Below, piece by piece: positions 12,704-25,699 of a stretch of 29,515 nucleotides of DNA. The position numbers and the translations under genes are program-made. The notes beneath the pieces are model-generated. The model worked only from the letters and a program-made list of their open reading frames with translations, made no database searches and was not told the origin of the DNA. Origin of the DNA: a virus (Duplodnaviria > Caudoviricetes); the IMG/VR virus record IMGVR_UViG_3300014167_000264, positions 1-29,515 of that record; one strand, given 5' to 3'. Position 1 is the first letter of the stretch; each line of letters opens with the position of its first letter.

Positions 12704-13165
12704 TCACTCCGGCAGCTCGACGCTCTCCACGGCGACATGCAGCTCCGGAAACTTCGCGAACCCGCCATTGCCTTGAAACAAAGGCCCGTAATCGTGTTCC
12801 TGCGGATGCAGGTGCAAAATCGTTTCGTCCAGCTCGCTCACCGTCGCATTCCGCAGCGCCAGGTCGACCGCCGTCATGTAATCGACGGCCGCGTGCGCGA
12901 TGTCTTCCGGATCGCCGCCCATCAGACCGATCCGCACCGTGACCAGGTGGACCTGCTCGATGAGCTGGCCTTCGTCGCTGACTTGCGTAGTCCGCGGCAT
13001 GATCCACACCGTCGGCGGATTCACCATCAGGCCCGTGTACGCCCACTTGAACTCGCGGAACGCATCGCGCGGCGTCGCCATGTTCGCGAGCAGCTCCGCC
13101 GTGTCGTTCTCGAGAATCGACTGAATGCAATTCAGCGCGATCAGAATGAACTGCGGATTAGCCAC
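12704..13165 (-). CDS. Putative tail terminator / tail completion protein (153 aa)
   Basis: Acidic ~150-aa alpha/beta protein just upstream of the tube gene; GTG preceded by GGAGG. Confidence 0.65.
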   Translation of the reverse strand: MANPQFILIALNCIQSILENDTAELLANMATPRDAFREFKWAYTGLMVNPPTVWIMPRTTQVSDEGQLIEQVHLVTVRIGLMGGDPEDIAHAAVDYMTAVDLALRNATVSELDETILHLHPQEHDYGPLFQGNGGFAKFPELHVAVESVELPE

Positions 13166-13880
13166 GCGCTGCCTCCACTCGCTGCCGGGCCGTCTCGAAC
13201 CGCTCCGCGTCGATCTCCATCCCGATGAAACGCCGCCCGCTCTTCACCGCCGCAACGCCCGTCGAACCAAGCCCCATGGAGTTATCGAGTACGACTCCGC
13301 CACGACGCGTGTAGGTCCGGATCAGGTACTCCAGCAGCGCGACGGGCTTTTGCGCGGGCTTCGCGCCTGGTTCGCGCTGGAATCGAAGAATCGACGTCGG
13401 CCATCCGGTCTTCGTCTGAACGCTTCCCTGCGCGCACTTGCCGTAGGTTTCCGATCCCCTCGCCGCCCGCGCTTTCGGCGCGCACGGCCGCAGTCCCTGG
13501 GGGAAGTAGCCGGGCATCTGCGGCGCGAATACGAGCAACTGCTCGTGTCGCACCATGGGACGACGGTGCGCCCACAGCCAGCCGCTTGCCGCTCGCTTAT
13601 CCCAGATCCACTCGTACCGGAACCAACCCCTCGGAGCCGCGTTCATCAGCGCCACCGAAAAGCGCATCATCGAGAACAACACGGCCGCGCCCCGTGCCTT
13701 CAGCACGCGGACATACTCGCGCCACAGCGTCGTGAGATTCATGACGCGGTCCCACGAGCAATTTGTCACCCCATAAGGCAAGTCGCACAGCACCAGGTCG
13801 ACGCTTTGCGCCTCAACCTTCGGAAGCAACTCCAGACAGTCGCCGTGATGCAGTTCGACCATATTTCCGCTATCCTTCAA
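13158..13880 (-). CDS. Orphan DNA amino-methyltransferase (N6-A/N4-C, beta class)
   Basis: GDCLE…VDLVLCDLPY (motif IV) precedes QKPVALLEYLI…VLDNSMGLGSTG (motif I) and FIGMEID. Alternative start is ATG at 13862. Confidence 0.92.
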   Translation of the reverse strand: MKDSGNMVELHHGDCLELLPKVEAQSVDLVLCDLPYGVTNCSWDRVMNLTTLWREYVRVLKARGAAVLFSMMRFSVALMNAAPRGWFRYEWIWDKRAASGWLWAHRRPMVRHEQLLVFAPQMPGYFPQGLRPCAPKARAARGSETYGKCAQGSVQTKTGWPTSILRFQREPGAKPAQKPVALLEYLIRTYTRRGGVVLDNSMGLGSTGVAAVKSGRRFIGMEIDAERFETARQRVEAARG

Positions 13881-14518
13881 TCCCGCTTTCCTCCTCGATG
13901 TTCGTGCTCATGTTCCCTCGGCAGCGGCGGATGGTAGAGCCTGCCGCCCATGCGGAGCGGTGCCGTCGCGCCCGGATGCGCGCTGAAATACTTCTGCGCC
14001 GCCGCGTCCAGCCGCTCGACGTCGGACGGTTTCAGCCCCGTCCGGAAGCCGCACGCCGACGCGATCTGCACCAGGTACACCTGGATATTCCGCATCGCCT
14101 CGCGCTTGAACTTCTCGGTGAGCTGGATCTCCGGCCGGGCCGCCATCTTGCTCGTGCCCTGCTGGTGAAACAGCGCGTAGTTCAACCGCGAACCGAGCGT
14201 CAGCGTCTTCCGCGCCTCGATATACACGGCGTTTGGATCGGTCCGGTCCGTCAGCGACGACGCCAGAGTGCCCGTCCGCTGCAGGATCGGCTTGCCCGGA
14301 TAGGCCACTTCCTTGAACTTTGCGTACTCCGGTTTCAGCTCTTTCCAGTGCTCGCCGCCCGCCTCGCCTTCGGTCTTGAACTGCGCCGCCACCTGGGCAT
14401 AGAAATCGTCCGCGATCACCGGCCAGATCGGCCTGTAATCGGCGACACCTTCGGTGAACCGCGCGATCCCTCGATCGAGCTGCGCCTGACCCGCAATTTC
14501 CATCCGGAATCGGAACAT
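13877..14518 (-). CDS. Phage virion morphogenesis protein (Mu G/gp31, tail-S family) with C-terminal extension
   Basis: F.TEG…WKEL, ILQRTGTLASSL, GSRLNYALFHQQGTSKMAARP. Start ATG 14518 chosen because it follows two hairpins and AAGAGG. Confidence 0.88.
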   Translation of the reverse strand: MFRFRMEIAGQAQLDRGIARFTEGVADYRPIWPVIADDFYAQVAAQFKTEGEAGGEHWKELKPEYAKFKEVAYPGKPILQRTGTLASSLTDRTDPNAVYIEARKTLTLGSRLNYALFHQQGTSKMAARPEIQLTEKFKREAMRNIQVYLVQIASACGFRTGLKPSDVERLDAAAQKYFSAHPGATAPLRMGGRLYHPPLPREHEHEHRGGKRD

Positions 14519-14568
14519 TCTGCCTCTTAGTGGGAACCCGGCGTTTCGCCGCCGGATGCTCACTGAGA

Positions 14569-14602: not shown

Positions 14603-15154
14603 TCAGCTCCCGCCGGCCAGCAACCCGGCAATGAGCTGGTAGCCGGAGTTATTGTTCACGCTCGATTTCACCGTCCTGATATTCGGCCCGATCCACCAGG
14701 AGCTTTTGCCGACGGCATGCGTGGCCATCCCGCCGCCCGTCCAGGCCCAGCCCGTAGCTGCGCCCGACCAGGAAGGACCCGCCGCGGCCGTGAGGTAGAC
14801 CTGCCAGCCCGCCACGGTGAAAACTCGCTGCGCTACGCCTGCCGCCACATCGGTGGTCACCGTGACCGGCTGCAGGGTCGTCGGCACCGCGTCGAACACG
14901 GTGAACGCGTACGTTCCGGCGCTCGTTTGTTGCCTCGCGTACATCGCCGTGCCCGCAAATTGCTGTGCCGCGCTCGCTGACGCGCCCTGGTTCCACGAGA
15001 TCCCGGCGCCCCAGATGTTGAGCGGATCGGTGAGCGTCGCCGTCGCCGCCGGAGGCGAAGTCGCCGGCGTCGTCGCCGTCTGCGCGTAAATCGTTGGCAC
15101 AAAGATCATTAGGATCCCAAGCGCCATAACTCTCAAACTTCTCAGTGAATTCAT
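14603..15154 (-). CDS. Exported protein, predicted small beta-barrel/outer-membrane-like (183 aa)
   Basis: Sec-type signal (MNSLRSLR-VMALGILMIFVPT-IYA/Q), Thr/Pro/Ala linker, then about eight amphipathic Gly/aromatic-rich strands. Confidence 0.65.
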   Translation of the reverse strand: MNSLRSLRVMALGILMIFVPTIYAQTATTPATSPPAATATLTDPLNIWGAGISWNQGASASAAQQFAGTAMYARQQTSAGTYAFTVFDAVPTTLQPVTVTTDVAAGVAQRVFTVAGWQVYLTAAAGPSWSGAATGWAWTGGGMATHAVGKSSWWIGPNIRTVKSSVNNNSGYQLIAGLLAGGS

Positions 15155-15208: not shown

Positions 15209-15535
15209 CTACGAAGCCTGCCCGTTTGCGGCTTCCCCGGCCGCCTCTGCCTCTTTCGCGAAGCCGATGAGCTTCGCGACCCACGGCCACTTGCCCGTTG
15301 CCCACAACAGGAAGGCCATCGCAACGATGCCGGTCGCCTTTGCCAGTTCGGCCACGGCCGTCTGGTCTTTGAACTGAAATCCCTGCATCGCGAGCATCCA
15401 GTTGATCTGGTTCGCCAGCAGCGGCGTCACCACGATCGCCAGGACATTCGTGCCCTCATCCGTCCCTTTGTGCGCAATCAGGCGCTTGAGCACCTGGTTG
15501 ATGAACCCGTTTTGCAGACTCTGCACGATCGCCAT
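15209..15535 (-). CDS. Small membrane protein, holin-like (108 aa)
   Basis: Two hydrophobic segments (VLAIVVTPLLA…, GIVAMAFLLWATG) and a polar C-tail; AAGGAG RBS. Confidence 0.55.
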   Translation of the reverse strand: MAIVQSLQNGFINQVLKRLIAHKGTDEGTNVLAIVVTPLLANQINWMLAMQGFQFKDQTAVAELAKATGIVAMAFLLWATGKWPWVAKLIGFAKEAEAAGEAANGQAS

Positions 15536-16105
15536 CTAAAGCTCCTTTCGAAACGCCTTCCCGGCGCTGTCCACACGTCGCAGGCCGAAATACTCTTCCA
15601 CCGGATGCAGCGCATACGGCCGCAATGTCCGGAACACCTTCCCAAGCTGCACTTCGATCCGGTAAACCTCGTGATAAAAGCTGCCCCTGTCCATTCGGAG
15701 AGCGCGGCAGCACTCCCGCCATCCGGCGCCCCCGAGAAAATGCAGCTCGAAGATCGCCGACCGCAGCGGATTGTCGAAGAGCGTCCGTCGCGAGACCAGG
15801 ACGAAATCGGCCGAGTACTCCTCGCGCTTACGTCCGTAGGTGAAACACCTCGATCGGCCTTCCCCGAAGCGGTCCAGGCTGACTGTCGAGAGCGTCCTTG
15901 GCTCACGCTGGATGCACAGCCATTTGTTGAAACAGGCCCGGAAAATCGAGTACCAGACGCAATAGCAGACCTGTTTCCCGCGTCCCCGGAAGCGGCCTGT
16001 CCCCATGCAGTGCGCGCACTTCGGGTTTGCCAGGATGAACGGGGCTACCCGCTCCCACTCGTACGCCGGCTCGGGGCTTTTCCGCCAGATGGGGCATGCC
16101 GCCAT
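15536..16105 (-). CDS. Zn-finger + C-terminal HTH putative transcription regulator (antiterminator-Q/sigma-region-4-like architecture, 189 aa)
   Basis: ATG at 16105 overlaps the upstream TAA (TAATG). CAHCMGTG…CYC zinc motif; IFELHFLGGAGWRECCRALRMDRGSFYHEVYRIE HTH-like block. Confidence 0.7.
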   Translation of the reverse strand: MAACPIWRKSPEPAYEWERVAPFILANPKCAHCMGTGRFRGRGKQVCYCVWYSIFRACFNKWLCIQREPRTLSTVSLDRFGEGRSRCFTYGRKREEYSADFVLVSRRTLFDNPLRSAIFELHFLGGAGWRECCRALRMDRGSFYHEVYRIEVQLGKVFRTLRPYALHPVEEYFGLRRVDSAGKAFRKEL

Positions 16106-16848
16106 TAGAAGACCTGATCCTTTCGGAAGCTGCGTTCGTCGCGGCCCGTCCGGTTGCTCGTCATGTTTCCGCCCGCGAATTGCGGACCCGGCGCCAGCGT
16201 CGCCGCGCTGGGCAGAAACAGCTTGTCGTAGTCGCCGCCGAGCAGCGCCTTCTTGCAGTCGTCGTAGCGGCTTTGCAGGTTCCGCCGGATCGGCAGGTCC
16301 TGCCCTGTGAACTGTGCCGCCACGGTCGCCGCCAACTGCGCCGCCGCGCCCAGGCGGTTGATCATTTCCAGCAGCCCCGCCGGCGTCGGCCACGCATCGG
16401 CCGTCGGCTGCTGCCATTGCGTCGAATCGAGCGGCAATCCCCGCCGCAACATCAGCCCCGCGATCTCCTGCGCGATCGACTCGATCCAGACCTGAATCTG
16501 CCGGTCGTCGATCTGGCCGCCGCGCTGAAACCCCGGCACTTCGCCGCATACGCTGCCGATCGACGTCCAGCTCTGCAGCTTGCTATCCGGGAATTGCACC
16601 GTAAAGATCTGCACGGCCGAAATCGTGCCGTCCGGATCGACGACGAAGATCCCCACCGGTATCGTGCCGCCGGCAGGCCCGGCCAGGTCGACTGGCACCT
16701 GCACCGTCATCGACACCGCCGAAAGATAAGTCGTCGGCGCCAGCGCCGGGCAGGCCGCGCGGGAGCCGGCCGTGAATCCGGCTCCCGTCAGCGTCACCGT
16801 CGTCCCAGGGGGACCGGACAACGGCGAGATCGAAGTTAACGTGGACAT
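16105..16848 (-). CDS. Head-tail adaptor-like protein with N-terminal IPT/TIG Ig-like domain (247 aa)
   Basis: LTSISPLSGPPGTTVTLTGAGF is the IPT/TIG signature. The helical C-terminal part (WTSIGSV…IQVWIESIAQEIAGLM…GLPL) resembles gp36/gp15-type adaptors. Directly follows the capsid gene. Confidence 0.75.
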   Translation of the reverse strand: MSTLTSISPLSGPPGTTVTLTGAGFTAGSRAACPALAPTTYLSAVSMTVQVPVDLAGPAGGTIPVGIFVVDPDGTISAVQIFTVQFPDSKLQSWTSIGSVCGEVPGFQRGGQIDDRQIQVWIESIAQEIAGLMLRRGLPLDSTQWQQPTADAWPTPAGLLEMINRLGAAAQLAATVAAQFTGQDLPIRRNLQSRYDDCKKALLGGDYDKLFLPSAATLAPGPQFAGGNMTSNRTGRDERSFRKDQVF

Positions 16849-18652: not shown

Positions 18653-19228
18653 CTAACGGGACCCGGCGACCGCGGGTCGCTGCAATTGCGTCCTGCGCTT
18701 GTTCAGATCCGGGCGCTCCGAGGCCACCAGCTTCACGGCATCGTGATATTGCAGCTTCGGATCCGCCTTCACTTTTGCGTCGGCCAAACTGACGATCAGC
18801 GCCTCGACCTTGTCCAGTTCCGAAACTCCGGCGCCGCCTCCGGCTCCTTCGCCGCCGCCGATCCCGTGCTCGGTCGTGTCCACCTGTTTCGGCAGCCCCT
18901 TGACGATCTCCCGGAACGTCGGCAGATCGCTCATCGCGATCTTCGCGAAATGCGGCCATTGCGCCGGCGTGATCTTGCCCTCTGCCACCGCCGCATCCAG
19001 CTCGCGCTGAGCGGTCATCGCGCCGAAGACTTCGCCCGCGATGAGCACGCCGTCTCCGGTCTGAAGCGCGTTGAAGTCCAACACGCCCTCTGCGTTTCGT
19101 GTCACGTCCGACAGCTTGATGACTCTCGGCGCCGCTTCCAGCCCCTCGACCGTCAAAGTCTGTTCGGTGTTGTCGTCGTTGACCACTCGCACCGTCCGTG
19201 CGACGCGGTCCGTCATGATGACTTTCAC
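18653..19228 (-). CDS. Putative scaffold protein (Mu Z-like), internal in-frame start within the protease gene (191 aa)
   Basis: GGAAGGAG at 19245-19238, 9 nt before an in-frame GTG at 19228, right after the protease domain. Scaffold motif LDAAVAEGKITPAQ downstream. Same arrangement as Mu I/Z. Confidence 0.65.
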   Translation of the reverse strand: MKVIMTDRVARTVRVVNDDNTEQTLTVEGLEAAPRVIKLSDVTRNAEGVLDFNALQTGDGVLIAGEVFGAMTAQRELDAAVAEGKITPAQWPHFAKIAMSDLPTFREIVKGLPKQVDTTEHGIGGGEGAGGGAGVSELDKVEALIVSLADAKVKADPKLQYHDAVKLVASERPDLNKRRTQLQRPAVAGSR

Positions 19229-20050
19229 TGCTCGTTGCTCCTTCCGAATTACGCCCGCGTCGCCGTGGGCGATCTCTTTCCATCCGCCGGCGTCCGACAT
19301 CGCGATCGCCGGCATCGCATCCAGGAACGGGCGGTTCGTGAGCGCCGCGCTCGTCAGAGTCGCGCCCTGGGCCTCGCCCGTCTGTTTGTTCCGCGCGCCC
19401 CAGTCGATCACCGGCGACATATAGCGGTATTCCTTGTCGCCGATCATCTTCGCGGCCCGCGGCGTGAACTCCGCCTGCCCGTACAGAACGCCGTCCGCGT
19501 CCGGAGCGTCCTCGACGGCCTTGATCCAGCCCGCCGCCGGCACGGCGCCGCCCTGCGCGACTTCGGGCTCTTCCGACGCGTGCTCGTAATCGATCACCGT
19601 GTCGGCCTTGCGCTTGTTGAAGTTCGAGACGATGTCCGACAGCGTGCGCCGCGTGATCGCGAACTTCTGCGCGCCTTTCACGAAGTTGCCGAGCTTCGCC
19701 AGGGGCACGCGCACCAGCCCGTCGACGGCGTTCAGCCTCACCGCCAGCCGCTGCCCCTTGTCCGTCATCCGCACTTCGCACGCGTCGACCTTGGCGTCTT
19801 TCCACGCTTCCGGCAGCTTCGCCTCGAATTCCGGCCCTTTCCGCTTCGCGATGCGCTGGATGTTGCTCTTCAGCGTGTCGGCGTCATGATTGTCCGCGCC
19901 CGCGCGGCCGATCGACTGCGCGGCGGCATGGACGTCCTCCGGCGTCTCGATCGGGAAGCTTCGCCCTTTTCCCGCGAAGTCGCCTTCCGGCATGTGCTTG
20001 CGCGTCGATTCCGGTATCTCCCGCGCTTCCAGCACTTTTGTTTCATACAT
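18653..20050 (-). CDS. Mu-like prohead protease I with extra N-terminal domain and C-terminal scaffold
   Basis: VIDYEHAS, PAAGWI, EFTPRAAKMIGDKEYRYMSP, SAALTNRPFL. Start 20050 preferred because AAGGAG is only 1 nt from the ATG at 20059. Confidence 0.92.
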   Translation of the reverse strand: MYETKVLEAREIPESTRKHMPEGDFAGKGRSFPIETPEDVHAAAQSIGRAGADNHDADTLKSNIQRIAKRKGPEFEAKLPEAWKDAKVDACEVRMTDKGQRLAVRLNAVDGLVRVPLAKLGNFVKGAQKFAITRRTLSDIVSNFNKRKADTVIDYEHASEEPEVAQGGAVPAAGWIKAVEDAPDADGVLYGQAEFTPRAAKMIGDKEYRYMSPVIDWGARNKQTGEAQGATLTSAALTNRPFLDAMPAIAMSDAGGWKEIAHGDAGVIRKEQRAVKVIMTDRVARTVRVVNDDNTEQTLTVEGLEAAPRVIKLSDVTRNAEGVLDFNALQTGDGVLIAGEVFGAMTAQRELDAAVAEGKITPAQWPHFAKIAMSDLPTFREIVKGLPKQVDTTEHGIGGGEGAGGGAGVSELDKVEALIVSLADAKVKADPKLQYHDAVKLVASERPDLNKRRTQLQRPAVAGSR

Positions 20051-20075
20051 ATGCCGCATTCTCCTTTCGAAGCGT

Positions 20076-23000
20076 CTATCCGATCCTCGCGGCGCTGACA
20101 GACCAGTCGTAAGCCATGCCGGTGCAGCCGGTTGGGATGCTGACCGCGTACGTCGGCGCAGTCGTGGAAGTCTGCTGAATCAGCTTGTGGCCATCGGCCC
20201 GCGTGCCGTTCGACGCGCCGCTGGCTGCCGCATTCGCCGAGGCCCAGGCAAACGTCGCCAGGCTGTAGCTGTTCAAACTGCCCCCGTCGTCGGTCCAGTT
20301 GACCGTGACCGTGAAACTCCCCGAACAGGCCGTCCCAGGCGTCTTTTGCACAACCGCCGCATCTACCGCCCAAATCTGCAACGCCGCCGTGCTCGGCGTG
20401 AACAGCGTCGTCGCACTCACTGCCGCGCTCGCGCCGGTCGCGGAGAAGGTCACATAGCTCGGCAGCGTGACGTTCTTGGCGATGCCGGTCGACGATTCGT
20501 AGACCTGCATCATTGCCGGTGTCGTCGCGTTGTTTCGGTTGAATGCCCCATCATTGCTCCCGCTATAAGCGGCCCCTGCGATCACCCTGAATGCGTCGGC
20601 CGATCCGGACGTGAATGCGGCGCCTGCGCTATTGAACGTCTGCAGCGCCGTCCAGGTCTGCGTAGAGCCAATCGCCGGAAGAGTTCCGCTGGCCGCGGGG
20701 AATGTGTAGGTCGCCGCTGCCGTGGTGTTGAACGTCGAAGTATTGTTCACGGTTGGGATATAAGCTCCGGCGCCCGTCGTCGCCTTCCAGGCCGGGACCG
20801 CGCTTACGGTGCCTGTGCCGGTCTGCGAGAGCAAATACATCGTGCTGGTCGTGTTGCCAGCCAACCTCGCCGGCGCTGGGGTCGAGTTCTCGTAGATGAT
20901 GTCGCCAAGCGTCGTCATGGGGTTCGTCATGCCGCCGCCCGGCGCGGTCCCGGTCTGGCTGGCCACTTCCCAATACGTTCCGTCGTAGAGCATCAGGAAC
21001 TGGGAGGATGTGGCGACGCTTCCGACATCGCCCACAGCAACTGCCGCATTCGCCGCCTGTTTCCAGATAGTCACGGCGCCCGCTCCGTTGACGTTGAGCG
21101 TGGGTGTCGTCGTGGTGTTTGCGAGATCGTTCGTGCCGGGATCCCAGATCACCAGATCGCCGGCCGCCGGCGTGAACGTCAGCGGAGTCGAGCAGGAGTA
21201 CGCGGTGCTCGAACTGGATGCCGTCGTGGAAGCGCAGACGATGTTCGAATCGATGCTGTGCGCGGTCGCGGCCATGGGCGCGCCGCTGGATACTTGAACG
21301 ATGGACCCGCTGGCAGGCCATGAGAATGCGCCCATCCGGCTGGTATCCGTCGGGTGGACGTGATCCGCCTTGGCGTAGGTCGCGGCAGAGCCGATTGCGG
21401 CCGTGCCGTCCATAATCGGCGTCGTGGACGAGGCGGCTGGAATCGTGGGCTTGTTTTGGACGAAAGGGCCACCGCTCGAAGCGTTCCAGTCGATGTACGC
21501 CGCGCTCAGCCCCGCCGCTGTCCCTGTCGTGTTTTGATTCAGCGTGGGGATCCAGCCAGCCGCCAGCGTGCCGCCCGATCCGGCCATGGGGATTGCATTG
21601 GCCGCGGGCGTGGCCGTTCCGACGAGATCCGCGCCGCCGTATTGATGGCTCGCCGCGTGCGCGGAGGGCAGCCAGGATGATGGGTAGCCCGACAGGCCGC
21701 TGATCGAGGAGTATACCGTCAGCGCCGCTTGCCGCGTCGTATCGGTGGGGTGAATGTGATCGGCCCGCGCCCACGTCGTGCCGGTCCCGGCCGCGGCCGT
21801 ACCGTCCATCAGTGGAGTTGCCGAGCTTGCAGCCGGAATCGTTGGCTTGTTTTGAATGAAAGCGCCGCCGCTCGAAGCGTTCCAGTCGATGAACGCCGCG
21901 CTCAGCCCCGCCGCAGTCCCGGTTGTGTTCTGGTTGAACGTCGGCCAGTTGGTGAGCAGCGCCGCGCTCACGGCGGGCAACTGGCTGCTGCCGTTGAGCT
22001 GAACGAGATTGCCCGCTCCGCTTCCGACCGTGTAGGACGCGCCCCACGCCGAGCCGGTCGAACTGGGGACGCCGGTGCCTGGGTATATCATGCTGCCGCC
22101 GCTGCCGTTGGCAATCCAACTGCGCACGCCGGCCGTCGTGGAAGACAGGACATATCCACTCGTGCCCGGATTCCCCAGCGCGGGCTCTTTTGCCGCCAGG
22201 TCCGCCGCTAGATTCGCGATCTGCGATTCGCTCAGCGTTAGCGGGTCACTGCCAGCCGACGCGTGCGTCGAGGCGTGCGCCGAAGGCGTGAAGCTCGATG
22301 GATAACCGGACAAGCCGCTGATCGTCGAATAGAGCGTGATCGGCGTCTGCGGAGTGTACCCGAGGGCGGTCGTGACCTGGCTGGACGACAGCGCCAGCGA
22401 ACTGATTGCCGCCCAGGTTTTGTTTCCCAGGAAGACCTGAGACGCCGTGCCGGCCGCGATCGCGGGCTCGAAGTAGGAAACCGGCTTCTGTGCCGCGCTT
22501 CCCAGAATCTGATCCAGCGCGCCGGAGATGCCCGAGCCAAGCCATGTCAACGGCGTCTGGTACAGCGCGGCCGTCGCCGCCGCCGCTCGCGCGTTGGTGA
22601 AATACAAATTTCCCGACTCGGCGACTTGCGCCGTCGTGTAGTCGCCAGTTTGCGCGGTGACTGCCCCGATTCGGCCGAACACGGACGAGACCGGTCCGCC
22701 GCCGCCGCCGCCGACCACAAGTCCCCAGGAGGAGCCGTTCCACGTCGGAACCTGCCCCGCCACCGTGCCCGCTGGAAACTGGCTCCAACTGAGCTGCATC
22801 AGCGGAGTGAGCGCGCTGTCCGTTTGCACCGCGCCGATCGTCGTCGTGGCTGGCGACGCGTGGATCCACCAGAAGAAACTGCCGCGCGACGTGCCTGAAT
22901 ACGTGACCGTGTACGGGTAGCCCGGTGAACAGTCCGCCAACGGGAAGAGCGCCATCGCCGGAATGATCGTGCCACCGCTGACCATGAACGTGAGCTTTGT

Positions 23001-23213
23001 CGGCCCGATTGGCGCGCCGTTGCAGATCATGCCCGGTGCCGTCAACGCCAGCATCCCGGTCCAGCCCGTTCCGTCTGGATTGAGCACCCGGTCGGAAATC
23101 GTCACCGCTACCGGCTGCGCGTGGGCGCAACGCGAGGACAGTGCCATCACCAGCAGCCCCGCCGCCAGCATCCCAATCAGCCGCGAAGTCCCCATCCTGG
23201 TTTCAGTTCTCAC
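20076..23213 (-). CDS. Large fibre-like protein with N-terminal signal peptide (1045 aa)
   Basis: GTG at 23213 overlaps the portal TGA and follows GAGGAG (alternative ATG 23195). Signal-like MGTSRLIGMLAAGLLVMALSSRCAHA/Q. Phage fibre motifs VSSVFGRIGAV, HASTHASAGSDPL, ARADHIHP, NPMTTLGDIIY. Confidence 0.75.
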   Translation of the reverse strand: MRTETRMGTSRLIGMLAAGLLVMALSSRCAHAQPVAVTISDRVLNPDGTGWTGMLALTAPGMICNGAPIGPTKLTFMVSGGTIIPAMALFPLADCSPGYPYTVTYSGTSRGSFFWWIHASPATTTIGAVQTDSALTPLMQLSWSQFPAGTVAGQVPTWNGSSWGLVVGGGGGGPVSSVFGRIGAVTAQTGDYTTAQVAESGNLYFTNARAAAATAALYQTPLTWLGSGISGALDQILGSAAQKPVSYFEPAIAAGTASQVFLGNKTWAAISSLALSSSQVTTALGYTPQTPITLYSTISGLSGYPSSFTPSAHASTHASAGSDPLTLSESQIANLAADLAAKEPALGNPGTSGYVLSSTTAGVRSWIANGSGGSMIYPGTGVPSSTGSAWGASYTVGSGAGNLVQLNGSSQLPAVSAALLTNWPTFNQNTTGTAAGLSAAFIDWNASSGGAFIQNKPTIPAASSATPLMDGTAAAGTGTTWARADHIHPTDTTRQAALTVYSSISGLSGYPSSWLPSAHAASHQYGGADLVGTATPAANAIPMAGSGGTLAAGWIPTLNQNTTGTAAGLSAAYIDWNASSGGPFVQNKPTIPAASSTTPIMDGTAAIGSAATYAKADHVHPTDTSRMGAFSWPASGSIVQVSSGAPMAATAHSIDSNIVCASTTASSSSTAYSCSTPLTFTPAAGDLVIWDPGTNDLANTTTTPTLNVNGAGAVTIWKQAANAAVAVGDVGSVATSSQFLMLYDGTYWEVASQTGTAPGGGMTNPMTTLGDIIYENSTPAPARLAGNTTSTMYLLSQTGTGTVSAVPAWKATTGAGAYIPTVNNTSTFNTTAAATYTFPAASGTLPAIGSTQTWTALQTFNSAGAAFTSGSADAFRVIAGAAYSGSNDGAFNRNNATTPAMMQVYESSTGIAKNVTLPSYVTFSATGASAAVSATTLFTPSTAALQIWAVDAAVVQKTPGTACSGSFTVTVNWTDDGGSLNSYSLATFAWASANAAASGASNGTRADGHKLIQQTSTTAPTYAVSIPTGCTGMAYDWSVSAARIG
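21336..21935 (-). repeat. Intragenic 204-nt (68-aa) direct repeat, copies at 21336-21539 and 21732-21935
   Basis: NQNTTGTAAGLSAA(F/Y)IDWNASSGG.F.QNKPTIPAASS.TP.MDGTAA.G…A.ADH.HPTDT.R occurs twice, 396 nt apart. Confidence 0.9.
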
Positions 23214-25699
23214 TTCTCGCTCCTCACTTCGTCTTTGAATACATACACATGCACGCACCGGCACTTGTCGCCGCCGTCGCAATCCGGGTTCGGAACGTCC
23301 GGAATGTCTTTCGGCGTGTCACCCTCGGCGCCATCGGCCGAGTCGCAGTTTCCGCAGGTGTTGCCGTCCAGGAGCGACGAGTAGCTCACGCTCCCAATCT
23401 CGTCCGCGTAATCCTCATAGCCGCCCTGCCGTCCGTCGGCAAACGCCTCGTTTGCACCCTTCGACGCCGTCGCGTCGATCCACTTGTCGCTCTGCCCGTC
23501 CAGGTCCTCGCCGATCGAGTTGATCAGCTCGCCCTTGCCGAGGTTGCCCCTCTTCTGTTTGTCGATCGCCAGGCCGGTAGCTTTCTGCTGCAGCCCGTTC
23601 TGAAACTCGCTGACCACGCCGTCGGCAAACAGCCCGAGCTGGTCGCCTTTGCGCCCCCGGTCGGTCATCCGGATCTTCGCGGCGTCTTCCGGAGCTTTCC
23701 CGGCGAGTTGTCTCGCGCGCTCCTGGCTCACCTGTTTCCGCCCGAAATCGGAGATTCCGTGCAGGATCTCCTCGATCTGGGCGATCAGCTTTTCGTCGGG
23801 AGCAACGCTCACCTGGTGCATCTTCCGCACCGGCGCATCGGCCAGCTTGTGAATGATCTCCGCCTGGATCCTCGGCCGCGCCGCCCGCAGAGCGCCCGCG
23901 ATATCGTTGCGACCCTTCTCGATCGATCCGACAATCTCGCTCAGCGCCAGGTGCTTCTCGGCGCCCTTCGGTGCGCGCTTCAGCCCGAGCGCCTGATATT
24001 CCGGCACGTCGGTCCGGATCACGCGCCCGCTGGCAAGCCGCTTCAGTGCGAGTGAGGAGAGCATGCTATCGGCGATGGCCGAAAAATCGGGGCTGCCGCC
24101 CTGCAACACAGCGCCAGCCCCGCTCGCCATCTCCGTGGGCGAACCCATTGAGCCATCGACATGCACCGATCCCACGTCGATACCCGTGATCTTTGTCAGC
24201 TCGCTCATCGCCGAGCGAATCACTTCCGCCGCCTTGAGGTCCTTCGCACTCGGCTTCTGATCCGCGGCCGTAGCGTCCACGCCCGCATCGCCGCCCTCGG
24301 CCGCCGCGCCCACTTGGCGTTCTCCGTCGGCCTCTTTGGGCGTGCCGCCCTTCGCTCCGCGCGGCGCATTTGCCCCAGGAGCGTTCGGATCCACCTGGCC
24401 CCCGCTCGGCGTCGACGCCGCCACGAGTGTGCGTGTGGTGGCCTTATCAGCGTCCGGAGCGCCCATTTTCGCGCGCACCCAGCTTTCCAGCTCGTCATCC
24501 GGAGCGATCACGCCGAACTGAGCCAGTTCCTGCAAAGCCTTCACGACGTCGTCGAACTTGAGCGACTGAATCTGCTGTGGAACCAGCTCCGGATAATGCT
24601 CGATCCAGTCGAAGTTGTAATCGACCAGCCGCCGCACCGTGCCCTGGTTCATCGCCCGGGCGATCTGCCGCGACGTCGCTTCCAGCGACATCATGAAGAA
24701 GTCCGCCATCGTCGCGCCCAGCGAGTGCGACCCGTGCTGCGACTGTCCGAGCATCATGAACATCGTCAGCGCGGCCATCGAAATCATTTCGTTGTGGTGC
24801 GCAATCGAGTCCTTCGGATCGCGCAGCGTGCCCTTCACGCCCTCCAGCGAGAACAGCCAGCCCTTGGGCAGCACGAGCCCGGTGCGTTCATGGGTCGTAA
24901 GCTGCTGGACCCACTCCTTCGCCTGCTCGATATCCTCTTGCTTTGCGTTGTCGCCAAGCGTGATGCACGGCACGCCCATGCCATTGCGCTCGCATGCGAT
25001 CGCGTCGACTTTGTAGAGGTTCGACTTCATGAACCAGTGCTGGTACATCGGCCGCAGCAGGCTCAGGCCCGTGTAGTTCTGGCCCTCTTGGTTCATCGTG
25101 AAGAGGTCCATTTTGTTCGCGGGCACTTGGAAAACGCCGTATTCCGAGCCCCGGTAGCCCATCTGTTCGAACGCCGCCAGGTTCTCGCCCGAGTCGTCGA
25201 CCAGCCAGCGATAGGCCGTGATCGGCAGCCGGGCTGCCAGCTTCGCCAGGCGCACGCGGTTTCCAACGATCTCCCAGACGTCCTCGTGCACCGCGAATCC
25301 GAAATCGAGCATCAGCAGCGCGTTGCGCAAGACGGCCGCAAAATCGAGGTCTTCAAAGAAGCACTCGCGGACGAACTCGCCCGCTTCCTTCTCAACCTTC
25401 GATGCGTCGTCAGGCAGCTTGACGTCCCACTCCGCGCCCAGGATCGGCAGCTTGATCGCCATCAGCGTCGCCGCGACTTGCGCGTCCGATCTCCGCATCT
25501 GCTCGTACGTGTAGACCGCGCTCAGCCCGACCAAGTCCGGGTTGTACTCGCCGCGCTCGCGAAGAAAACCGCCAAAAATGGGCGTTCCCGACGCGCCGTA
25601 TTCGGTTGCATCCGGCCGGTCCGGCCGCGCCGCCGCCCGCGCGACTTGCGGCTGCACCGACGTCGGTCCACCCGCGATATCGAGGCTCAAGAGTGCCAT
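23210..25699 (-). CDS. Portal protein (Mu gp29/DUF935-like) fused to a MuF/gp30-like C-terminal domain (829 aa)
   Basis: YEQMRRSDAQV, GFAVHEDVW, GLSLLRPMYQHW, ERNGMGVP, MLGQ portal motifs, then a low-complexity linker, then YSSLLDGNTCGNC…DG…PNPDC…CRC. Confidence 0.88.
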   Translation of the reverse strand: MALLSLDIAGGPTSVQPQVARAAARPDRPDATEYGASGTPIFGGFLRERGEYNPDLVGLSAVYTYEQMRRSDAQVAATLMAIKLPILGAEWDVKLPDDASKVEKEAGEFVRECFFEDLDFAAVLRNALLMLDFGFAVHEDVWEIVGNRVRLAKLAARLPITAYRWLVDDSGENLAAFEQMGYRGSEYGVFQVPANKMDLFTMNQEGQNYTGLSLLRPMYQHWFMKSNLYKVDAIACERNGMGVPCITLGDNAKQEDIEQAKEWVQQLTTHERTGLVLPKGWLFSLEGVKGTLRDPKDSIAHHNEMISMAALTMFMMLGQSQHGSHSLGATMADFFMMSLEATSRQIARAMNQGTVRRLVDYNFDWIEHYPELVPQQIQSLKFDDVVKALQELAQFGVIAPDDELESWVRAKMGAPDADKATTRTLVAASTPSGGQVDPNAPGANAPRGAKGGTPKEADGERQVGAAAEGGDAGVDATAADQKPSAKDLKAAEVIRSAMSELTKITGIDVGSVHVDGSMGSPTEMASGAGAVLQGGSPDFSAIADSMLSSLALKRLASGRVIRTDVPEYQALGLKRAPKGAEKHLALSEIVGSIEKGRNDIAGALRAARPRIQAEIIHKLADAPVRKMHQVSVAPDEKLIAQIEEILHGISDFGRKQVSQERARQLAGKAPEDAAKIRMTDRGRKGDQLGLFADGVVSEFQNGLQQKATGLAIDKQKRGNLGKGELINSIGEDLDGQSDKWIDATASKGANEAFADGRQGGYEDYADEIGSVSYSSLLDGNTCGNCDSADGAEGDTPKDIPDVPNPDCDGGDKCRCVHVYVFKDEVRSEK

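Follow-up and report, generated by a model that had tools for sequence, protein, structure and literature searches.

The virus record IMGVR_UViG_3300014167_000264, which was analysed over its whole length (29,515 nucleotides, or 29.5 kb; hereafter the window), encodes a 1045-amino-acid (aa) fibre protein within the head genes of a tailed phage. The gene starts on the stop codon of a Mu-type portal gene, and its product carries paired cysteines and an N-terminal leader that is kept across a family of homologues. Export of the protein through the Sec system is very likely, judging from the leader sequence. The protein may be an accessory fibre that matures in the periplasm and docks on finished particles when the cell lyses, a reading that we consider evenly balanced and in which attachment to the virion is the step that we infer. 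The protein consists of a signal peptide, an N-domain, a repeat shaft, and a beta-sandwich tip, and the features of the gene are as follows.

23220..23225, minus strand: Shine-Dalgarno-like GAGGAG in the portal 3' end, 6 nt ahead of the GTG start (sequence)
20076..23213, minus strand: fibre gene, 1045 aa, start overlapping the portal stop as GTGA (open reading frame sequence; junctions bridged by contigs)
23118..23213, minus strand: predicted Sec/signal-peptidase-I leader, residues 1–32, cut AHA/Q (sequence, hydropathy)
22821..23117, minus strand: N-domain, residues 33–131, fibre-anchor-type beta-sandwich with Cys64/Cys95, predicted trimer (model)
20604..22820, minus strand: Ala/Thr/Ser/Gly-rich mosaic shaft with His motifs and Cys660/Cys674, sharing segments with leaderless tail fibres (sequence)
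21336..21944, minus strand: internal duplication in the shaft, two 213-nt copies that are 77% alike (sequence)
20076..20471, minus strand: C-terminal all-beta tip, approximately residues 915–1045, with Cys963/Cys1030, resembling TNF/C1q-type fibre tips (low-confidence model)

The frame overlapping the portal stop, which a first-pass annotation had pointed out, is real: the GTG at 23213 follows the GAGGAG and shares the GTGA overlap with the portal stop at 23210–23212. An alternative ATG at 23195 has a weaker ribosome site, and the leader is retained with either start; a longer TTG start at 23282 was rejected, as it falls within the portal gene. Single contigs of run X1, which may be the source sample, span both junctions of the fibre gene with zero differences, and an assembly chimaera or artefact was therefore rejected. 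The same run contains a second contig, with deeper coverage and approximately 85% alike over window positions 20528–20802, which indicates a related fibre gene in the same sample. The GC content of the gene is 0.654 and its third-position GC content (GC3) is 0.80, compared with a GC3 of 0.78–0.85 in the other window genes measured. A scan for the sigma-70 consensus found no promoter-like site before the gene, and the coding strand downstream of it shows no terminator-like site. The mature chain holds six cysteines (64, 95, 660, 674, 963, and 1030). The protein has no family match in Pfam, PHROG, or NCBIfam, so that its identity as a fibre rests on fold and homologues. Searching PDB sequences with the family profile yielded no match under E 0.1, and a collection of 50,697 cultured-phage records contained no near full-length homologue, with short shaft matches in 2 records (5 for P0041).

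The proposed signal peptide is borne out by a basic n-region, a hydrophobic h-region, and AHA|Q at residues 30–33, with small residues at positions –3 and –1. The highest 19-residue hydropathy window of the whole protein (1.81, at residue 12) lies inside the leader, and another hydrophobic window at residue 74 (1.65) is a beta-strand in the structure model, not a membrane helix. Lipoprotein and Tat leaders were rejected on reading the sequence, which has no lipobox and no twin-Arg motif. No ATG, GTG, or TTG start that would bypass the leader is located just ahead of Gln33. In all five of the closest full-length homologues (32–41% identity), the leader is kept in different wording but with the same three-part form and AQP end; none of the five begins downstream of the hydrophobic stretch, which had been named in advance as an outcome that would speak against export. 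The same five also share the N-domain and the tip. Among 220 stored proteins, 87 have the N-domain from its start and 81 of these have a hydrophobic leader, as do 49 of 50 distinct family genes in the fetched loci, although both counts follow our own hydropathy rule and are biased upward because the family queries included the leader. The remaining six comprise two that look like leaders interrupted by one charge, one apparently cut short, and three apparently leaderless. For comparison, nine core phage genes of the same loci have a hydrophobic stretch in only 0–5 of 21–52 cases.

The domain behind the leader, which had been described as a Cys-containing, beta-sandwich-like domain, was modelled as one with a predicted local distance difference test score (pLDDT) of 88.6. 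Among 48,161 chains, the five with the best fold match are all phage fibre anchors, namely those of the A-1(L) neck fibre (8keg; Z 10.4, root-mean-square deviation 2.9, 98 aligned residues), the Bxb1 tail tip (9d93; Z 9.6), the Ur-lambda tail tip (9e7m; Z 9.0), the XM1 neck (7kjk; Z 8.8), and the DEV collar (9cod; Z 7.3), whereas the top non-phage chains, which are secreted bacterial sandwiches, have Z 6.9 and below. Foldseek against the PDB returned no match for the N-domain at E ≤ 0.001, and four of the same five entries rank high but with E values above that cut-off; a viral structure library returned 8 matches at E ≤ 0.001, minor tail proteins among them. The Atlas lists PF08400 at 0.91 for the N-domain, and PF08400 is found in 74% of the members of the look-alike cluster, but its hidden Markov model matches neither the query nor any of the 70 family members scanned. 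Trimer prediction, which had been suggested as a check, gave a score of 0.52 for three copies of the N-domain against 0.00 for the best of 3 controls (pLDDT 80), with runs agreeing in at least 86% of contacts; 20 of 30 solved pairs attain the mark set for this score, as does 1 of 23 single chains, and the prediction may pass through likeness to the solved anchors. Cys64 and Cys95 are kept or lost jointly in 69 of 70 rows (both in 36, neither in 33, and one alone in 1), and the domain contains 0, 2, or 3 cysteines in 32, 48, and 1 of the leader-bearing proteins, respectively. A leaderless family member on a viral contig (L051) carries a T4-type long-fibre tip, and thus the N-domain also heads an ordinary fibre. 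Together, the leader retained by homologues, the anchor-type fold, the predicted trimer, and the paired cysteines lend good support both to export and to the identity of the protein as a fibre.

All of the shaft motifs named in the first-pass annotation are present (VFGRIGAV at 178, HASTH at 313, DHIHP at 485, HAASH at 519, and TTLGDIIY at 767), and the two copies of the duplication lie at 21336–21548 and 21732–21944, with the spacing given as 396 nt. Pieces of the shaft also occur in leaderless proteins with tail-fibre domains, including P0021, whose match to a tail-collar fibre N-domain is below the cut-off, and five proteins bearing S74 chaperones. Of 70 family members, 8 match the phage tail repeat PF12789 (E up to 0.1). 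The suggestion of a C-terminal beta-sandwich agrees with the model of the tip, albeit at low confidence (mean pLDDT 60). The best match of this model is the tip of the Bdellovibrio fibre Bd2133 (Z 7.5, root-mean-square deviation 3.3, 99 aligned residues), and it also resembles TNF/C1q folds; Foldseek against viral models returned no match for the tip at E ≤ 0.001. The anchor fold, the trimer, and the TNF/C1q-like tip are accordingly predicted features. A trimeric autotransporter of the YadA/Eib type was rejected, as Pfam and NCBIfam detected no YadA anchor and the C-terminus models as a sandwich.

Across the family, the leader is constant and the genomic site is variable. Around 68 portal matches, 46 regions were fetched (L153–L156 having been chosen for a nearby family gene), and 43 of them hold both portal and protease. 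The gap between these two genes is at least 400 bp in 15 of the 43 loci by stop-to-stop coordinates; among these 15, one or more genes score as leader-bearing in 12, and this N-domain is present in 2. The family is absent from this site in 41 of the 43 related loci and is therefore an optional insert between conserved genes, with copies there in the window, L153, and L158. L158 is among the two loci with the closest portals and has the long C-terminal portal extension, and its family gene overlaps the portal stop via ATGA and is followed by four further leader genes. As a defining mark of the system, the portal-coupled site thus finds a second example but does not hold for the family, and of the two features that homologues had been expected to keep, the leader is kept while the position between portal and protease is not in most. 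Nor is the coupled site general, as P2-like prophages carry the closest full-length homologues behind their lysis genes. Elsewhere, family genes are located between neck-terminator-like and tube genes (6 of 36 loci), ahead of the central tail gene in the tail-tip region of the lambda-like elements L073 and L169, and at the end of the late operon in L015. Genes for exported fibres and glycan enzymes, which are often Cys-rich, use several slots, and the portal-protease gap is one of these. In L195, L197, L203, L192, and L211, it is occupied by other large genes that are leader-bearing and Cys-rich but do not have the N-domain (up to 1700 aa and 28 Cys).

The reading as a periplasm-matured accessory fibre is favoured because the phage copies lie in virion or late modules and because the top fold matches are phage fibre anchors, ranked above secreted bacterial domains; the gene after the tail-tip genes in the related elements G404 and G070, which is also leader-bearing, was counted for it as well. 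The fibre would be exported via the host Sec system late in infection, a timing suggested by its operon position. Removal of the leader would leave an N-terminal Gln, which would probably cyclise, and the chain would then probably fold as a trimer and form its putative disulfides in the periplasm. Docking onto finished particles would occur when lysis mixes periplasm with cytoplasm. Between the action of holin and endolysin and the rupture of the outer membrane, particles and periplasm are in a common compartment, and in vitro, T4 and P22 particles that are already complete can still acquire their fibres. The fibre had been proposed to be added to heads, but the docking sites of the fold matches are necks, collars, or tail tips, and the neck would be the most likely site here. 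There, the fibre may serve as an accessory adhesin for surface glycans. A head-tail adaptor-like gene at 16105–16848 (minus strand) has an N-terminal IPT/TIG (CoaZ repeat) domain and is a candidate docking site.

The closest structural parallels are the A-1(L) protein gp82N (8keg; PMC10966104), the XM1 protein (7kjk), and DEV gp53 (9cod; PMC11445570), which share the same oligomeric N-terminal beta-sandwich followed by a flexible fibre. According to the available parts of these sources, the domain forms a trimer that holds the neck fibre to the neck in A-1(L), which likewise encodes this fibre apart from its tail genes (PMC10966104), and it rings the head-tail adaptor in DEV (PMC11445570). The window fibre differs from all three by its Sec-type leader and Cys pair, is only 10–13% identical to them, and the alignment of the solved chains begins at their residue 1; the main text of the A-1(L) paper does not mention the word "signal" (PMC10966104). 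The lambda tail-tip anchor (9e7m chain Ta, which we take to be the N-domain of Stf) and the Bxb1 tail-tip chains (9d93) are likewise similar to the N-domain by fold (Z 9.0 and 9.6, respectively). Lambda Stf is a cytoplasmic protein encoded in the tail module with the Tfa chaperone. In contrast to the Stf-type anchor (PF08400), the window family has a leader and no match to the PF08400 model. Virion proteins with Sec leaders are known from filamentous phages (pIII and pVIII), with pIII disulfides formed in the periplasm, and in this respect resemble the window fibre; however, inoviruses are assembled at the membrane and leave the cell by extrusion, whereas the window phage is tailed, with portal, protease, and tape measure. 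Genes of unknown function in Porphyromonas gingivalis prophages, known as Q-rule genes, also combine a Sec leader with Gln at +1, but in the available text they are read as outer-membrane modifiers and not described as fibres (PMC10367356).

The main competing explanation is that the protein is a late exported product that never joins the virion, i.e., a free or cell-surface fibre that is released at lysis or displayed on the infected cell and acts on capsule or biofilm or blocks receptors against competing phages. This is possible but doubtful. Its model is the mosaic adhesive trimer (MAT) fibres of Bdellovibrio, which, as far as the available text describes them, have an equal layout of signal peptide, conserved beta domain of approximately 130 aa, phage-like trimeric fibre, and exchangeable tip, and which work without a virion (PMC10769870). 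The MATs are encoded on the chromosome and associated with the cell, their shafts are beta-helices, and an S74 domain is frequent (PMC10769870), while the window fibre lies in a phage head operon and has no S74 match, although some homologues stand alone; the likeness is one of layout and, tentatively, of the tip. The best tip match is a MAT tip, Bd2133, but with Z under 8 and from a model of low mean pLDDT. Several further observations weigh against docking on the virion. The gene is found in Mu-like, lambda-like, and P2-like phages, and the closest full-length homologues (N-domain 41–44% identical) occur in P2-like myophages, in which neither neck nor tail genes match those of this phage, so that no shared docking partner is evident; close homologues in phages with unrelated necks and tails, together with exported neighbours that have no anchor, favour a free or surface fibre. 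One P2-like element (G003) also has separate, leaderless fibre-like genes at its baseplate. P2-like prophages also encode a leader-and-tip protein of approximately 153 aa, without an anchor, after the fibre homologue:

L007:12745-13206, P2-like prophage: leader and tip-only protein
L009:12670-13125, P2-like prophage: leader and tip-only protein
L006:10589-11050, P2-like prophage: leader and tip-only protein

Many of the leader-bearing neighbours without an anchor resemble glycan enzymes or lectins (GDSL, pectate-lyase-like, LamG), sandwiches like the N-domain are common in secreted bacterial proteins (Z 6–7), and the cytoplasmic genes of the window are also Cys-rich (8 Cys in the portal). The Cys pattern is clustered on the tree, where the label of at least two Cys in the domain changes approximately 6 times with at least 3 changes forced; the 70 rows are therefore not independent, and their independent support is modest. 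A free fibre could well block adsorption, since the purified fibre of the Rhodobacter capsulatus gene transfer agent (RcGTA) inhibits gene transfer (PMC5026251, available text). On the other hand, the best matches of the N-domain are virion anchors, and a free fibre has no evident need for an anchor-type domain right at its mature N-terminus.

It is unlikely that the gene is a lysogenic-conversion moron, i.e., an adhesin made by a quiet prophage to the benefit of the host, of which Eib and Lom are adhesin-type examples. Its optional occurrence at this site and the orthologous stand-alone host copies beside housekeeping genes (L163–L165, 40–49% identical) would suit such a role, but its start is coupled to the portal stop, it has no promoter-like or terminator-like sites of its own in the sigma-70 scan, its GC3 is like that of its neighbours, and neither an autotransporter nor another anchor family was found with Pfam and NCBIfam. 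An uncleaved or unused leader, belonging either to a cytoplasmic fibre with a miscalled start or to a tether that retains fibres at the inner membrane for particles to collect, is very unlikely. Leaderless members do occur (P0166, P0135, and L051), yet the Cys pair is in none of the six proteins scored as leaderless, no start codon just before Gln33 would bypass the leader, and the leader varies in sequence while its three-part form and AQP end persist.

The nearest fibre homologues in named genomes are from Acidobacteria assemblies at all five loci, and relatives of the portal, with identity up to 58%, are present in 62 of 401 Acidobacteria genomes, which suggests a host in the Acidobacteria; the portal as query found no relative in IMG/VR. 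The fibre family is widespread in Acidobacteria elements and not a one-off, as its profile matches at least 167 of the 401 genomes when 3 candidates are scored in each. Six unpublished genomes (G342, G299, G259, G395, G102, and G355) are counted in these tallies, and no single claim depends on them. A leader-bearing copy of approximately 1530 aa occurs at four loci, and the two listed in full (L159 and L160) are inside a conserved head-tail cluster. The stand-alone copies of L163–L165 measure approximately 430 aa, with the two listed in full adjoining the housekeeping genes. Four genomes whose host copies lie at a distance from phage genes were checked, and each has, elsewhere, a conserved head-tail cluster of a second type. 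These host clusters are mostly single-copy:

L227:2392-12593, L228, L229, L232 (genomes G079, G046, G292, and G019): conserved head-tail cluster
L159, L160: conserved head-tail cluster with the fibre copy inside

The capsid-like gene of the second cluster type is found in 73 of the 401 genomes (68–79% identity) and that of the first type in another 55 (62–92%), and the family is present in 126 of the 128 genomes with either cluster compared with 41 of the other 273. This co-occurrence follows taxonomy and is therefore not independent proof, which further tempers the case for docking. The two conserved clusters look like gene transfer agents, while acidobacterial elements are treated as prophages in the available text of PMC5900883. 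Co-occurrence of distant host copies with a head-tail cluster fits the RcGTA pattern of scattered fibre genes, in which the head spikes and the tail fibre Rcc00171 are receptor-binding parts encoded outside the main cluster, as are the stand-alone Acidobacteria copies (PMC5026251; bioRxiv 10.64898/2026.07.19.739414). The available text of these sources mentions no signal peptide for the RcGTA spike or fibre, and the phrase is absent from the preprint (bioRxiv 10.64898/2026.07.19.739414). Many relatives of the Mu-type portal in host genomes (L154, L173–L212) are accompanied by a tape measure frame of approximately 270–330 codons, compared with 875 in the window, which suggests a third domesticated, short-tailed element.

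More tentatively, and a little short of even confidence, Acidobacteria tailed phages and gene-transfer-agent-like elements may possess a second, extracytoplasmic fibre route, with export via Sec, disulfide formation in the periplasm, and docking at lysis, that serves siphoviruses, myoviruses, and domesticated clusters across the class. Assembly of tailed-phage particles is regarded as taking place entirely in the reducing cytoplasm, and an exported virion fibre would, if real, add a periplasmic step to morphogenesis and make lysis a part of assembly. Disulfide-stabilised adhesins would become possible, and fibres of co-resident prophages or of the host could decorate each other's particles. 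Such an assembly route, if demonstrated, would be categorically new: no description of Sec-exported fibres or of such a route for tailed phages was found in literature listings and the openings of abstracts, which covered few subscription journals, and a keyword search of the main text of a paper on cultured Acidobacteria phages gave no such passage. If the fibre is instead free, it would show that phage fibres have been turned into secreted adhesins, as in Bdellovibrio. Since the family occurs in 167 of 401 genomes of a major class of soil bacteria, cultured strains may permit a direct test.

The structural genes of the window are on the minus strand, in the order terminase, Mu-type portal, fibre gene, Mu-like protease, capsid, neck protein, tape measure, and tail-tip-like genes. 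Neck proteins are encoded at 16105–16848, 13877–14563, and 12704–13165. The neighbours of the fibre gene and a second leader-bearing gene are as follows.

23210..25699, minus strand: Mu-type portal, 829 aa, with a long C-terminal extension (PF06074, E 6e-51; phrog_113)
18653..20059, minus strand: Mu-like prohead protease of the gpI type, starting 16 nt past the fibre stop (PF10123, E 1e-36)
14603..15154, minus strand: second leader-bearing gene of the same operon, 183 aa, with Gln after the predicted cut and no family (sequence, hydropathy)

The portal extension (23210–24300, minus strand) is approximately 400 aa long, is common to L158 (56%), and ends in Cys motifs that presumably recall Mu gpF, although with no Pfam match. 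The second leader-bearing gene is beta-rich and lies between neck genes together with a small, hydrophobic, possibly holin-like gene (15209–15535, minus strand); a gene of similar appearance in L217 does not match it significantly. Among the window genes, none was recognised as an endolysin. Likewise, no sheath or baseplate gene was recognised apart from two weak partial sheath matches, and the phage is therefore probably a siphovirus. The record stops at a tail gene, and further fibre genes may thus be missing. An N6/N4 DNA methyltransferase gene (13158–13880, minus strand) is located within the neck-tail module. A CxxC-containing frame of no family (15536–16100, minus strand) recurs near the fibre-family gene in unrelated phages (L169 and L172) and is possibly a late regulator.

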